DNA of 64,000 bases, taken from NCBI RefSeq assembly GCF_003334785.1, contig NZ_QOWV01000001.1; one strand, given 5' to 3'. Shown here piece after piece: positions 10,745 through 22,813 of this stretch. The notes below the pieces were generated by a model. That model made no database searches, was not told the DNA's origin, and saw nothing but the letters and a program-made list of their open reading frames with translations. A program made the translations under genes and the position numbers. Position 1 is the stretch's first letter. Each line of letters opens with the position of its first letter. The stretch is from Escherichia coli. Lineage in GTDB: Bacteria; Pseudomonadota; Gammaproteobacteria; Enterobacterales; Enterobacteriaceae.

Positions 10745-10840
10745 ATAAAAAAATAGAGTCTGTCGACATCCGCCAGACTCTACAGTACACACAGCAGTGC
10801 ATCCGCGTCTTAAATCCGGCATTGTCTCCTCTGCGCCGGT
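10745..10840 (-). ncRNA. mcaS: Small regulatory RNA McaS (IsrA)
   Basis: Minus-strand sequence ACCGGCGCAGAGGAGACAAUGCCGGAUUUAAGACGCGGAUGCACUGCUGUGUGUACUGUAGAGUCUGGCGGAUGUCGACAGACUCUAUUUUUUUAU matches my recollection of McaS, ending in hairpin plus U7; lies between abgR and smrA. Confidence 0.8.
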
Positions 10841-14217: not shown

Positions 14218-14339
14218 GCAGGTGAATGCAACGTCAAGCGATGGGCGTTGCGCTCCATATTGTCTTACTTCCTTTTTTGAATTACTGCATAGCACAATTG
14301 ATTCGTACGACGCCGACTTTGATGAGTCGGCTTTTTTTT
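14218..14339 (+). ncRNA. fnrS: FNR-activated small RNA FnrS
   Basis: Sequence GCAGGUGAAUGCAACGUCAAGCGAUGGGCG...GACGCCGACUUUGAUGAGUCGGCUUUUUUUU matches my recollection of FnrS; terminator hairpin plus U8; between zntB and dbpA. Confidence 0.85.
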
Positions 14340-16101: not shown

Positions 16102-17037
16102 TTATTTCACTTCAACCACATTCAGCCGTAACTCATCCAACTGATTTTCATCTTCTTCTGGCTGCCAGCACGCCGGTTGTAGTGGGATCTCTTCGCGATC
16201 AAACGCCAGATCACCCCCGTTAACCACTTCAGAACCGTGGGTGATGCCTTTGAAATCGAACAGGTTGGTATCGCACAGATGCGACGGCACCACATTCTGC
16301 ATCGCGCTGAACATCGTCTCGATACGCCCTGGATAACGTTTATCCCAGTCACGCAACATGTCAGCAATCACCTGACGTTGCAGGTTAGGCTGTGAACCGC
16401 ACAGGTTGCACGGAATAATCGGGAACGCTTTTGCATCGGCAAATCGCTGAATATCTTTCTCGCGGCAGTAGGCCAGCGGACGAATAACGATATGTTTGCC
16501 ATCATCGCTCATCAGTTTCGGAGGCATACCTTTCATCTTACCGCCGTAGAACATATTTAAGAACAACGTTTGCAGGATATCGTCACGATGGTGACCCAAC
16601 GCGATCTTCGTCGCCCCCAGTTCCGTTGCGGTACGATAAAGGATACCGCGACGAAGGCGAGAACACAGTGAGCAAGTGGTTTTGCCCTCTGGAATCTTCT
16701 CTTTCACGATACCGTAAGTATTCTCTTCAACAATCTTGTACTCAACGCCCAGCTTTTCAAGATACTCGGGCAGAACGTGTTCCGGGAAGCCCGGTTGCTT
16801 TTGATCGAGGTTAACAGCCACCAGCGAAAAATTGATTGGCGCGCTTTGCTGCAAATTGCGCAGAATCTCCAGCATGGTATAGCTGTCTTTACCCCCGGAG
16901 AGGCAAACCATGATGCGATCGCCTTCTTCAATCATATTGAAGTCAGCAATGGCTTCGCCCACGTTACGACGCAGACGTTTTTGTAATTTGTTCAGGTTGT
17001 ATTGTTCTTTCTTACTAATTTCTTGATTTTGCGACAT
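16102..17037 (-). CDS. ttcA: tRNA 2-thiocytidine(32) synthetase TtcA
   Basis: 311-aa ORF with PP-loop SGGKDS motif and CxxC pairs; uninterrupted. Confidence 0.9.
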
Positions 17038-17788: not shown

Positions 17789-18922
17789 TTAGAACTGATA
17801 AACCAGACCTAAAGCGACAATATCATCGGTAGAGATGCCATTGGCAGCGTAGAAGCTGTCATCTTCATCCAACAGGTTGATTTTATAGTCAACGTAGGTG
17901 GACATGTTTTTATTGAAATAGTAAGTCGCGCCAATATCGGCGTATTTAACCAGATCTTTATCATCAACACCTGCCGGGTTGTCTGCACCACCCGCAGCGT
18001 GCAGGTCACGGCCTTTAGACATCAGGAAAGAGACTGCCGGACGCAGACCAAAATCAAACTGGTACTGTGCAGTGACTTCAAAATTCTGGGTTTTGTTTGC
18101 CACAGCATAATCGCTGTCGCCAAACGGGGTCATATTACGCGTTTCTGAATACATGGTTGCCAGGTAAATATTGTTAGCATCGTATTTTAGCCCAGCAGTC
18201 CACGCGTCTGCTTTATCACCACCCGCCGCAGTATGGTTAACCTGGTCATTGGTGCGGTCAGAAGAGGTGTATGCCGCACCAGCGCTAAAGCCCATGCCTA
18301 AATCATATGTTGTGGAAAGACCCCAGCCGTCACCGTTTTCATGGCGAACATCACGTCCGTTGTTGGTGCCTTCCTGACCATTACTGGCTCCTTCGTTGTT
18401 ACCTTGATACTGCACCGCGAAGTTCAGACCATTTACCAGACCGAAGAAATCAGTATTACGATAAGTCGCGACGCCATTGGCTCGACCAGTCATAAAGTTG
18501 TCTGCATTGGTATAAGAGTCACCGCCAAATTCAGGCAGCATATCGGTCCAGCCTTCGATGTCGTACATTACGCCATAATTACGTCCGTAATCGAAAGAAC
18601 CGTAATCTGCAAATTTCAGCCCGGCAAATGCCAGACGGGTCCATGACTGGTTTTTTGAAGATTCAGTGTTGTTTGCCTGAATATTGTATTCCCATTGCCC
18701 GTAGCCAGTGAGTTGATCGTTAATTTGGGTTTCGCCTTTAAAACCCAGACGCGCATAGCTCTGGTCGCCATCTTTCGCTGAATTATCAGAAAAATAATGC
18801 AGGCCATCAACTTTGCCATACAGATCTAATTTGTTGCCGTCTTTATTATAAACTTCGGCTGCATGTGCAGCACCTGCGGCGAGCAGGGCAGGAATTAAAA
18901 GTGCCAGTACTTTGCTTTTCAT
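17789..18922 (-). CDS. ompN: Outer-membrane general porin OmpN (OmpC/OmpF family)
   Basis: 377-aa ORF, signal peptide ending AHA-AEV, C-terminal ...GLVYQF typical of porins. Confidence 0.9.
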
Positions 18923-19149
18923 TGAATAAATCCTTTAGTTATTTTATTTGCCTTTTATCCCCATTTCGGGGAGTGAAAACATCCTAAAGGAGAAGTTCAG
19001 TTAGCCGATAAATATCATTTGTTACGCCTTAAGTAAAACCTTAATCAAATAATTCCTCTGAAATGATAATAAGTCTGGTGAATGTATCGAAGATAATACA
19101 TACAAAATAAAAATTATACTTTTAATTTGCTATACGTTATTCTGCGCGG

Positions 19150-19258
19150 GTTATATGCCTTTATTGTCACAGATTTTATTTTCTGTTGGGCCATTGCATT
19201 GCCACTGATTTTCCAACATATAAAAAGACAAGCCCGAACAGTCGTCCGGGCTTTTTTT
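19150..19258 (+). ncRNA. micC: Small regulatory RNA MicC
   Basis: GUUAUAUGCCUUUAUUGUCACAGAUUUUAUUUUCUGUUGGGCC...AAGCCCGAACAGUCGUCCGGGCUUUUUUU matches my recollection of MicC; divergent from ompN; its terminator hairpin (19229..19258) is flanked by A-run and T-run and so may also terminate ydbK on the other strand. Confidence 0.85.
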
Positions 19259-19288
19259 TTAGAATTGGATAATCCTTATCCAGAGCAT

Positions 19289-22200
19289 TTAATCGGTGTT
19301 GCTTTTTTCCGCTTTTCCGGCCATTTGTGCCAGGAAGTCATAGCGTTTTTGCAAATCAGCTGCAGCATCTTTCCATAACTGTTCTGCCACTTCTGGCTGC
19401 TGCGAATTCAGCCGACGGAAACGTTGCTCGTGAAGTAACGTTTCTTCCAGTGCTTCTGACGGCGGGCGTGAATCCAAGGCCAGCGGCAGTTTGCCTTCAT
19501 CGGCACGACGCGGATCAAAGCGATATAGCGGCCAGAAGCCGGTAGCTGTGAGTTGGCGCATCTGGTCGTGGCTGAGTGCCAGATCGTAACCATGCTCTTC
19601 ACACGGGCTATAAGCAATGATCAGCGATGGCCCCGGATACGCTTCCGCTTCCTGAATCGCTTTCACCGTCTGGTTCAGCTGCGCGCCGAGAGAAATCTGC
19701 GCCACATAAACATGACCGTACATCATCATACTGACGCCAAGATCTTTACGCGCTTTACGTTTGCCGTGCTCGCCAAATTTAGTTACTGCACCCAGCGGTG
19801 TCGCTTTCGACGCCTGACCACCGGTGTTGGAATAGCATTGCGTATCCAGCACCAGAATGTTGACGTTTTCCGTCAAACTCAATACATGATCCAGACCGCC
19901 AAAGCCGATATCGTAAGCCCAGCCATCACCACCAATCAGCCAGATTGATTTTTCCACCAGTGCATCTGCATCACGTAGCAGTTCATGTGCTTCGGCAACA
20001 TCGTTGAGTTGCTGGCGTAAAGCTGCAACCTGTTCACGACGAACCTCTGGCGTGGCGTCTGATTTCAACGCCGTCAGTAATTCCGCCGGGATTTTATCGG
20101 CAAATTGATCCAGCAGACGCAGCACGCGGACACGGTGTTGATCGACCGTCAGGCGGAAACCAAGGCCAAATTCGGCATTATCTTCAAATAGAGAGTTCGC
20201 CCATGCCGGCCCACGACCGTTGGCATCGGTGGTATACGGTGTAGAGGGCAGGTTACCGCCATAAATTGAAGAACAGCCAGTGGCGTTAGCGATCAACATC
20301 CGGTCGCCATAGAGCTGAGTCAGTAATTTAATATACGGCGTCTCGCCACAACCGGAGCAAGCACCTGAATATTCAAACAGCGGTGTAATCAGCTGCGATG
20401 TACGAATATCAATACGTTCCAGTTTGCTACGGTCGATTTCTGGCAGGTTGAGGAAGAAATCGTAATTGATTTTCTCTTCTTCGACATGTTCCAGGCGAGA
20501 CATCATATTGATGGCTTTAATCTCTGGATTCTGACGGTCTTTCGCCGGGCAAACTTCGACGCACAGGTTACAACCGGTGCAATCTTCCGGTGCCACCTGC
20601 AAGACATATTTCTGCCCGCGCATATCACGCGATTTCACATCCAGCGAATGCAGGCTGGCAGGGGCGTTTTCCATCGCTTCAGGCGGCACCACTTTTGCGC
20701 GAATAGCTGAGTGTGGGCAAGCGGCAACGCAGTGGTTACATTGGGTACAGAGTTCCTCTTTCAAGATGGGGATCTCTTCGGCGATATTGCGTTTTTCCCA
20801 GCGCGTAGTGCCCATCGGCCAGGTGCCGTCTGGCGGCAGCGCCGAAACGGGGAGGGCGTCACCAAGCCCGGCGAGCATCGCAGCGGTTACGGTTTTCACG
20901 AAATCAGGGGCGGCATCGGAAACCACTGGCGGTCGATTGGCGCTGTGCGGATTTACCGGTTGCAACGGAACTTCTTCTACGGATTCACGCGCCAGCGCCA
21001 GAGCCTGCCAGTTGCGTTCCACCAGATCCTGGCCTTTGCTACTGTAACTTTTGGCAATCGCACCCTGCAATTCTGCGAGGGCGCTATCGCCAGGCAGAAT
21101 TTGCGTCAGATGGAAAAAAGCCATCTGCATGACGGTATTAATACGGGCCGCCAGGCCACATTCGCGGGCGATTTTCGCCGCGTTAATCACATAGAAGCGC
21201 GCTTTTTTCTGGTTTAACACGGCCTGAACTTCTTGCGGCAAGCGCGACCACACTTCATCTGCGCTGTACGGCGTGTTGAGCAGGAAAATGCCGCCAGGTT
21301 TTAAACGCTCAGCCATCTGATATTTATCGATAAACTGCAACTGGTGGCAGCCAACAAAATCAGCCTGGGAAATGAGATAAGCGGAACGAATCGGCTGTTC
21401 GCTCACTCGAAGGTGAGAAACCGTCAGGCCGCCCGCCTTTTTGGAGTCGTAAACAAAATAGCCCTGTGCGTACCACGGCGTGGAATTACCGATAATCTTG
21501 ATATTGTTTTTGGTCGCGGAAACGCTGCCATCACTACCAAGGCCATAAAACAAGGCTTCCAGTTTCGCCGAGTTTGGCAGGGTGTTTTCCGGCAACGGCA
21601 GTGACAGATTGGTCACATCATCGTAAATACCAACCGTAAAGCGCGCTTTCGGTTTAGCCGCGTTGAGCTCGGCAAATACCGCCAGTACACAGTCTGGGCC
21701 AAATTCTTTGGATGAAAGACCATAGCGCCCACCAATGACACGGGGCAGAGTTTCGCGCTCGCCATTATTAAAGGCTTCTGCCAGTGCGGTCATTACATCC
21801 AGATAGAGCGGTTCTGCCTGGGCACCGGGTTCTTTGGTTCTGTCCAGTACCGCCACGCTGCGTACGGATCCCGGCAGAGCTTGCAGTAAATGTTTAGCGG
21901 AGAAGGGGCGGTACAGGCGAACTTTCAGCACGCCAACTTTTTCGCCACGGGTTAGCAATTCATCAACCACTTCTTCACAGGTGCCAATGGCAGAGCCCAT
22001 CAGGATAATCACCCGTTCCGCTTGCGGATGCCCGTAATATTCAAACGGCTGATACTGACGACCTGTCGCGGCAGAGAAATCATTCATCGCCTGTTCAACA
22101 TGGTCATAGACCGCGTTGTACCATGGGTTGGTGGCTTCGCGAGACTGGAAATAAGTGTCAGGATTGGCGGACGTACCGCGGATCACCGGATGTTCCGGGT

Positions 22201-22813
22201 TGAGTGCCCGGGCGCGATGAGCATCAATTTCGACCTGCGGCATGAGATCAAGAATCGTGTCATCGGCCAGCGGGACAATTTTATTGATTTCGTGGGACGT
22301 GCGGAAACCATCAAAGAAATGAATAAATGGCACGCGGCTTTTCAGCGTCGCGATTTGCGAAATGAGAGCAAAGTCTTGCGCTTCCTGGACGTTTGCTGCA
22401 CACAACATCGCGCAACCCGTCTGGCGCACCGCCATAACGTCGGAATGATCGCCAAAAATAGAGAGTGCATGTGTGGCAACGGTACGTGCCGCTACATGCA
22501 GGACAAACGGTGTTAGTTCGCCTGCCAGTTTGTACAGCGTCGGGATCATCAGCAGCAAACCCTGCGATGACGTAAACGATGTTGAAAGGGCACCCGTCTG
22601 CAAAGCGCCATGCACGGTAGCGATAGCACCCGCTTCCGACTGCATTTCAACCACGCGTGGTGTGTCTCCCCAAACGTTCTTTAAGCCGTTTCCGGCCCAG
22701 GCATCAGCCTGTTCTGCCATCGTGGAACTGGGGGTAATAGGGTAGATGGCGATAACTTCACTGGTGCGAAATGCGACCGAAGCAACCGCGCCATTACCGT
22801 CAATAGTAATCAT
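19289..22813 (-). CDS. ydbK: Pyruvate:flavodoxin/ferredoxin oxidoreductase (PFOR, YdbK)
   Basis: 1174-aa ORF; two 4Fe-4S ferredoxin CxxCxxCxxxCP motifs (CTQCNHCVAACP, CTGCNLCVEVCP) and TPP-binding region. Confidence 0.95.
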   Translation of the reverse strand: MITIDGNGAVASVAFRTSEVIAIYPITPSSTMAEQADAWAGNGLKNVWGDTPRVVEMQSEAGAIATVHGALQTGALSTSFTSSQGLLLMIPTLYKLAGELTPFVLHVAARTVATHALSIFGDHSDVMAVRQTGCAMLCAANVQEAQDFALISQIATLKSRVPFIHFFDGFRTSHEINKIVPLADDTILDLMPQVEIDAHRARALNPEHPVIRGTSANPDTYFQSREATNPWYNAVYDHVEQAMNDFSAATGRQYQPFEYYGHPQAERVIILMGSAIGTCEEVVDELLTRGEKVGVLKVRLYRPFSAKHLLQALPGSVRSVAVLDRTKEPGAQAEPLYLDVMTALAEAFNNGERETLPRVIGGRYGLSSKEFGPDCVLAVFAELNAAKPKARFTVGIYDDVTNLSLPLPENTLPNSAKLEALFYGLGSDGSVSATKNNIKIIGNSTPWYAQGYFVYDSKKAGGLTVSHLRVSEQPIRSAYLISQADFVGCHQLQFIDKYQMAERLKPGGIFLLNTPYSADEVWSRLPQEVQAVLNQKKARFYVINAAKIARECGLAARINTVMQMAFFHLTQILPGDSALAELQGAIAKSYSSKGQDLVERNWQALALARESVEEVPLQPVNPHSANRPPVVSDAAPDFVKTVTAAMLAGLGDALPVSALPPDGTWPMGTTRWEKRNIAEEIPILKEELCTQCNHCVAACPHSAIRAKVVPPEAMENAPASLHSLDVKSRDMRGQKYVLQVAPEDCTGCNLCVEVCPAKDRQNPEIKAINMMSRLEHVEEEKINYDFFLNLPEIDRSKLERIDIRTSQLITPLFEYSGACSGCGETPYIKLLTQLYGDRMLIANATGCSSIYGGNLPSTPYTTDANGRGPAWANSLFEDNAEFGLGFRLTVDQHRVRVLRLLDQFADKIPAELLTALKSDATPEVRREQVAALRQQLNDVAEAHELLRDADALVEKSIWLIGGDGWAYDIGFGGLDHVLSLTENVNILVLDTQCYSNTGGQASKATPLGAVTKFGEHGKRKARKDLGVSMMMYGHVYVAQISLGAQLNQTVKAIQEAEAYPGPSLIIAYSPCEEHGYDLALSHDQMRQLTATGFWPLYRFDPRRADEGKLPLALDSRPPSEALEETLLHEQRFRRLNSQQPEVAEQLWKDAAADLQKRYDFLAQMAGKAEKSNTD

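Follow-up and report, generated by a model that had tools for sequence, protein, structure and literature searches.

The micC gene of Escherichia coli, which specifies a small regulatory RNA, converges on the oxidoreductase gene ydbK (nifJ). This arrangement raises the question of whether the hairpin at the end of the small RNA also terminates the transcripts that arrive from the other side. We considered it in a stretch of 64,000 nucleotides of E. coli DNA (NCBI RefSeq assembly GCF_003334785.1, contig NZ_QOWV01000001.1), called the window below, to which all coordinates and strands refer. A first-pass annotation of this stretch had proposed that the micC terminator might work in both directions.

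The micC gene and its surroundings

The genes and reading frames concerned are the following.

17789..18922, minus strand: ompN, porin gene (377-aa ORF; RefSeq/MG1655 annotation)
19150..19260, plus strand: micC, gene of the MicC sRNA, equivalent of b4427 (RF00121 match; sequence equal to the MG1655 ncRNA feature; 109-111 nt)
19150..19165, plus strand: 5' seed of MicC, complementary to the ompC mRNA leader (perfect 16-nt match and RNAduplex)
19289..22813, minus strand: ydbK/nifJ, coding sequence of a pyruvate:flavodoxin/ferredoxin oxidoreductase (1174-aa ORF; RefSeq annotation)
19127..19378, plus strand: spurious 83-aa ORF with a TTG start (it crosses the micC promoter, micC, the terminator and, in antisense, the 3' end of nifJ)

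The locus is that of micC, a well-known and already documented sRNA gene of E. coli. An Rfam scan of the whole window, the check that had been proposed for it, finds RF00121 (MicC) at 19147..19267 on the plus strand with 125.0 bits for a curated gathering score of 90 (E 2.3e-19), and the alignment takes in the full model (1-123 of 123). The record of MG1655 gives micC (b4427) a length of 111 nt; with the coordinate offset of 1417971 derived from that record it corresponds to 19150..19260, and the sequence is identical. The limits first proposed, 19150..19258, are those of the 109-nt size given for MicC (PMC5745476), and the identification of micC is borne out by the family match and by the identity with MG1655, where the feature extends to 19260. 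Its divergence from ompN, also part of the first proposal, agrees with the ORF positions and the RefSeq/MG1655 annotation; the intergenic region between the two genes is 227 bp long, and a 227-nt micC-ompN intergenic fragment was used in PMC5745476. On the other side ydbK/nifJ is convergent with micC: its stop codon, TAA on the minus strand, occupies 19289..19291, 28 nt separate it from the end of micC at 19260, and its 3' UTR covers 19222..19288.

The 1.1 kb surrounding micC match an E. coli chromosome with 100% identity; of 5426 complete genomes of the species, 5381 contain at least 80% of this region. Compared with MicC of E. coli K-12 (RF00121, b4427), we find the same sequence, neighbours, ompC-complementary 5' end and terminator; micC itself does not differ, and the difference lies in the surrounding strain, which has no Rac prophage. 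This is deduced from ttcA, intact at 16102..17037 (minus strand) and adjoining uspF and ompN, since the Rac prophage interrupts the region in K-12 MG1655. Two further known sRNA genes occur in the window, FnrS (RF01796, 134.8 bits) at 14218..14335 on the plus strand and McaS (RF00115, 118.4 bits) at 10745..10840 on the minus strand; the 3' termini of both appear in the portions considered here of the K-12 TRS table (PMC10687069). As for annotation, PGAP records of E. coli carry no feature under micC in 24 of 24 sampled matches, the curated MG1655 record having an ncRNA there. The gene stays unannotated by automated pipelines, and its correct annotation is the main use of the present finding.

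The reverse complement of MicC nt 1-16, AAUAAAGGCAUAUAAC, is found at -30..-15 of the MG1655 ompC leader. For MicC nt 1-40 against this leader, RNAduplex gives a duplex of -32.0 kcal/mol, a value that none of 500 shuffles reaches; the reported duplex takes in all 40 nt, with nt 1-15 as one contiguous paired block. This prediction is in line with what has been published on MicC (Chen et al. 2004, as cited in PMC5745476): the 109-nt RNA pairs with the 5' UTR of ompC and thereby represses OmpC (PMC5745476). For the identical K-12 gene, the literature records that MicC depends on Hfq and that it represses OmpC in vivo (PMC5745476), and MicC of the present strain would likewise be an Hfq-dependent trans-acting sRNA whose 5' end pairs with the ompC leader and lowers OmpC synthesis. 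The position of micC opposite the quiescent porin gene ompN has been noted, and a parallel drawn with micF-ompC (PMC5745476). There too, an sRNA gene (micF, annotated upstream of ompC in MG1655) diverges from a porin gene and its product represses another porin; on the other hand the sRNA family and the target are different, MicF repressing ompF.

The frame 19127..19378, which the first-pass annotation judged very likely not to be protein-coding, runs uninterrupted for 83 codons in this strain and in K-12, and this would favour a real protein overlapping micC. However its TTG precedes the micC transcription start by 23 nt, in an AT-only context (...AAATTATACTTTTAA) and with no purine-rich Shine-Dalgarno-like run upstream; its final third runs antisense to the conserved coding sequence of nifJ; and no NCBIfam family matches it at E <= 1. 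Among 28 evaluable orthologous loci, stops inside micC close the frame in 23 of the 25 non-identical ones. Apart from the three identical E. coli sequences, only locus L012 keeps it open through micC, and this partly (from -17); the close relative L030 is open in a different frame, cut at +112. Within E. coli, the T8/T9/T10 indel polymorphism also shifts the frame. Given the broken frames, the T-run polymorphism and the lack of a Shine-Dalgarno-like run and of a family match, we leave next to no chance for a real 83-aa protein here: the ORF is not a gene and should not be called in annotation.

One hairpin on two strands

Three elements make up the terminator region.

19232..19251, both strands: GC-rich palindromic hairpin GCCCGAACAGTCGTCCGGGC, attributed in common to the MicC and ydbK terminators (sequence and folding)
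19252..19260, plus strand: T9 tract, U-tail of the MicC intrinsic terminator (sequence)
19222..19231, minus strand: interrupted U-tract UUGUCUUUUU, following the hairpin on the ydbK strand (sequence; mapped ydbK 3' end at its distal end)

The hairpin falls inside micC and is the single GC-rich inverted repeat between the convergent units. Read on the plus strand, the stem has five G-C/C-G pairs, an A.C mismatch and two further pairs (-9.3 kcal/mol), then nine U; 3' U-tails of this kind are bound by Hfq. Read on the minus strand, it has eight contiguous pairs, including a G.U that replaces the A.C (-13.3 kcal/mol), or ten pairs with the flanking AA/UU, and then the tail UUGUCUUUUUAU. With flanks the values are -16.5 kcal/mol for the plus strand and -18.6 kcal/mol for the minus strand. 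The minus-strand fold is thus the better one, owing to the G.U in place of the mismatch, and a 101-nt minus-strand RNA folds with z = -3.8 compared with shuffles.

The hairpin had first been described as flanked by an A-run on one side and T9 on the other. The T9 stands; the A-run is real but shorter and less close than this description implied. The stem is preceded on the plus strand by AAAAAGACAA, in which the A-run is an A5 only (19222..19226) and GACAA lies between this A5 and the stem, so that the minus-strand tail is the interrupted UUGUCUUUUUAU. The breaks are a G at position 3 and a C at position 5; U occupies six of the first eight and nine of the first twelve positions, which passes the tail rule of our scan, weakly. 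Applied to 18500..19800, this simple consensus scan gives a sole terminator-like site, the minus-strand hairpin with its ten pairs and T-rich tail. It does not report the plus-strand MicC terminator in that interval because the A.C mismatch leaves a 5-bp stem and a 10-nt loop; this miss is a limit of the scan and not evidence against the terminator.

Another palindrome, GGATAA-N3-TTATCC, lies at 19267..19281, between the T9 and the ydbK stop, with a second exact copy in ttcA (16331..16345), i.e. two matches for 0.12 expected by chance. Other Escherichia retain it with differing loop bases, but in Citrobacter and Salmonella it is partial or missing, and for this reason it was dropped as a candidate for a conserved second hairpin of the ydbK 3' UTR. 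One arm with its flank, TTATCCAGA, agrees at eight of nine positions with TTATCCACA, which we take to be the DnaA-box consensus.

From the fold on both strands and the published 3' end discussed below, the micC terminator hairpin very probably also ends the convergent ydbK/nifJ units, with an overlap of ~38 nt between the two RNAs. MicC would end at an intrinsic terminator formed by the hairpin 19232..19251 and the nine U that follow. As the stem is near-palindromic and preceded by AAAAAGACAA, the minus-strand RNA also forms a hairpin with a U-rich tail; a polymerase coming from ydbK/nifJ would meet an equally good or better hairpin, then UUGUCUUUUU, and most ydbK transcripts would end at ~19222-19223. 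One DNA element would in this way terminate both convergent units. On the minus strand, termination would be efficient but leaky, which could account for the reported co-transcription of ydbK and ompN when ydbK is strongly induced.

The 3' end of ydbK

The TRS paper (Nat Commun 2023, PMC10687069) combines RNAtag-seq and other 3'-end data from E. coli K-12 in exponential-phase LB. The portions of its tables considered here assign to ydbK a minus-strand 3' terminus at MG1655 1437194 (peak 1437187-1437202). Transposed to the window this is ~19222-19223, 9-10 nt beyond the stem and at the distal end of the U-rich run. The upstream RNA printed for the terminus is ...AAAAAAAAAGCCCGGACGACUGUUCGGGCUUGUCUUUUU, with a hairpin fold of -16.9 kcal/mol by the authors' own calculation, and the label is 'Alternative primary in TU, ydbK'. 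Three tables give the ratio R = L/(L+D), which is 1 minus the local readthrough, as 0.93 (adjusted p as low as 1e-105), 1.0 and 0.97 (PMC10687069). Measured from the annotated MicC end to this ydbK end, the RNAs overlap by ~38 nt at their 3' ends.

The first-pass suggestion that ydbK (stop at 19289, minus strand) could end at the same hairpin is supported by this terminus. Transcripts of ydbK ending elsewhere had been named as the observation that would speak against it, and the published 3' end falls just past the hairpin (PMC10687069). The 3'-end mapping on both strands that had been suggested is positive for the minus strand (1437194, R 0.93-1.0); for the plus strand it comes down to the annotated micC end. 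The portions of the TRS tables considered contain no plus-strand 3' end of MicC (PMC10687069), so that this end rests on annotation and on the T9 tract. Besides, the supplements of Adams et al. 2021 (eLife; PMC7815308), in the parts considered, have no entries for micC, ydbK or 14369-14372xx, and those of SMRT-Cappable-seq (PMC6131387) and of PMC9262186 have none for the site.

A mapped 3' end alone does not separate termination from trimming. The ydbK RNA might run on, into ompN or to a Rho-dependent site, and be trimmed by 3'-5' exonucleases that stall at the stem-loop, the hairpin acting as a stabiliser only. The imperfect U-tract of the minus strand goes in this direction, as does a report that ydbK and ompN are expressed together as an operon in a multidrug-resistant strain with activated SoxS (Fabrega 2012, cited in PMC6176095), the string 'ydbK-ompN' having no match in our full-text literature search. 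So does the class 'alternative primary in TU' given to the ydbK end, the 'in TU' label of these tables reflecting the annotation of a ydbK-ompN operon (PMC10687069). The position of the mapped end argues for the opposite, since it is 9-10 nt past the stem, where the U-rich run ends. This is the spacing expected for intrinsic termination, trimmed ends being usually nearer to the base of the stem. Moreover R values of 0.93-1.0 mean almost no read starts across the next 67 nt downstream, and in the portion of the TRS table considered, no 3' end is listed for ompN between those of uspF and ydbK (PMC10687069). We infer that the ydbK 3' end originates by intrinsic termination and not by processing, and hold trimming to be unlikely. 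The reported co-expression, together with the 'alternative primary in TU' label, indicates that some polymerases pass the hairpin and proceed, antisense across micC, into ompN; the R values indicate that this readthrough fraction is small in exponential LB cultures. Leakiness of the terminator may be linked to the co-expression of ompN.

The hairpin could also do no more than set the position of an event caused mainly by head-on collision with polymerases transcribing micC. Such a mechanism, in which the stem-loop positions the collisions, comes from the Liu laboratory for convergent pairs of E. coli (bioRxiv 10.1101/2022.10.23.513370), and the geometry of the locus fits, with convergent units and a 3' overlap of ~38 nt. 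Yet the ydbK end is strong (R 0.93-1.0) in exponential LB data where, in the table portions considered, no MicC 3' end is called, which suggests little convergent micC transcription in these cultures; and the minus-strand element has the hairpin and the U-rich tail of an ordinary intrinsic terminator. Collision as the main cause of ydbK termination therefore appears very unlikely, even more so than trimming, and intrinsic termination at the shared hairpin is the reading we retain.

Where genes converge in E. coli, bidirectional terminators are described as prevalent (Ju et al. 2019, per bioRxiv 10.1101/2022.10.23.513370). One slice of the TRS table (PMC10687069) holds at least seven other convergent pairs with 3' termini overlapping by 28-41 nt, namely yciN/sohB, tpx/tyrR, uspE/ynaJ, slyA/slyB, ribC/cfa, ydhQ/mdtK and ldtE/lpp, and the ~38 nt of micC/ydbK fall within this range. 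As in the bidirectional terminators of Ju, Li and Liu (2019, SEnd-seq), a single palindromic stem-loop serves convergent units, and micC/ydbK, in which the gene and the type of shared terminator are both known already, belongs to this class without being exceptional in it. It differs from the other pairs in that one partner is a small regulatory RNA and not an mRNA. Its two sides are also unequal: MicC has a perfect T9 and a mismatched stem, ydbK a better stem and an interrupted U-tract. The pair was not found named as bidirectional in the texts consulted here.

Variation of the terminator and its possible meaning

One genome per species was scanned with the micC 5' seed, which gave 30 loci from Citrobacter, Salmonella enterica subspecies arizonae and diarizonae, Superficieibacter, Pseudocitrobacter and several Escherichia lineages. 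As the seed was the search pattern, its conservation in this set is circular and was left out as evidence; short loci with spacers shortened by the stop-codon heuristic were left out of the spacer comparison. A convergent nifJ 3' end follows micC in 29 of the 30 loci, the exception (L011) having an IS200-type element after the T-run. The hairpin is present in all 30: in most the stem is perfect, GCCCGAAC-N4-GTTCGGGC, and the loops vary, and in three loci (L014, L023 and L027) the top stem pair has undergone a compensatory change from C-G to U-A (GCCCGAAT/ATTCGGGC). A run of T7-T10 follows the hairpin in 33 of 33 tabulated loci, and the GACAA that borders the stem on its 5' side hardly varies.

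Citrobacter and Salmonella have UUGUCAAUUUAU as their minus-strand tail, with four U in the first eight positions, against UUGUCUUUUUAU with six of eight in Escherichia. Within E. coli the A-rich flank varies (AAAAAGACAA, AAGAAGACAA, AATGAGACAA), so that the minus-strand U-tract is not strictly conserved. Interrupted, weaker in Citrobacter and Salmonella and variable in E. coli, this tract suggests that bidirectionality is not obviously under selection.

The locus shows further polymorphism among strains. The T-run after the micC hairpin is T9 here and in K-12, T8 in O157:H7 F3113 (L034) and in L036, L037 and L038, and T10 in L033 and L039. A 71-nt probe matched 3766 genomes, 2485 of them identical and 1281 differing. 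In E. coli GMF065 (L035) and in a Citrobacter MAG (L011), an IS200C-type element, with an annotated tnpA in L035, stands directly 3' of the micC T-run (window ~19261) and splits micC from nifJ. The first ~53 nt past the junction (GTGCACAGAAAACCCCCAGCTAGGCTGGGGGTT...) are identical in both, which suggests a preferred insertion site at the micC terminator. On the other flank, strain EC09 (L041) carries an IS1 (777 bp with its target duplication) at 3-11 nt before the start codon of ompN (window ~18925..18933). This insertion, some 225 bp upstream of micC, separates ompN from its promoter, and an IS1 transposase with a two-piece match is also found in eight others among the ten best-matching E. 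coli genomes. In JKHS016 nifJ is annotated as frameshifted (L001 4690..8213), ompN has an internal stop in isolate AF39 (L038), and the porin at the ompN position is named ompC in strain MEW (L036).

A T-to-C change in the 3' arm, which creates the A.C/G.U asymmetry, is found in every sampled E. coli sensu stricto, including a locus of 89.8% identity, and in L030; Citrobacter, Salmonella and the cryptic Escherichia clades lack it. The allele of E. coli reads GTCCGGGC with AAAAAG, the ancestral-type one GTTCGGGC with AAATTG. The T-to-C change weakens the stem on the MicC strand (-9.3 vs about -13.8 kcal/mol), the stem on the ydbK strand staying paired by G.U (-13.3 kcal/mol), and an Escherichia-specific TT-to-AA change turns the ydbK-strand tail UUGUCAAUUU into UUGUCUUUUU. 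These alleles might mean that, in the lineage of E. coli, the two sides of the shared terminator were tuned unequally and that conditional readthrough connects oxidative stress with MicC and OmpN; we regard this as distinctly unlikely.

The 3' UTR of the ydbK mRNA and MicC overlap by ~38 nt. It may be of biological interest that the terminator of an sRNA would also insulate this sRNA and the quiescent ompN from a stress-induced convergent operon, and if this insulation leaks, the SoxS-dependent co-regulation reported for ydbK and ompN would have a possible explanation. If the asymmetry were adaptive, the element would be a conditional insulator, normally shielding micC and ompN from SoxS/RpoS-driven ydbK transcription. 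Leak-through under strong oxidative stress would then give co-expression of OmpN together with a full antisense RNA to MicC, and redox stress would be coupled to the choice of porin.
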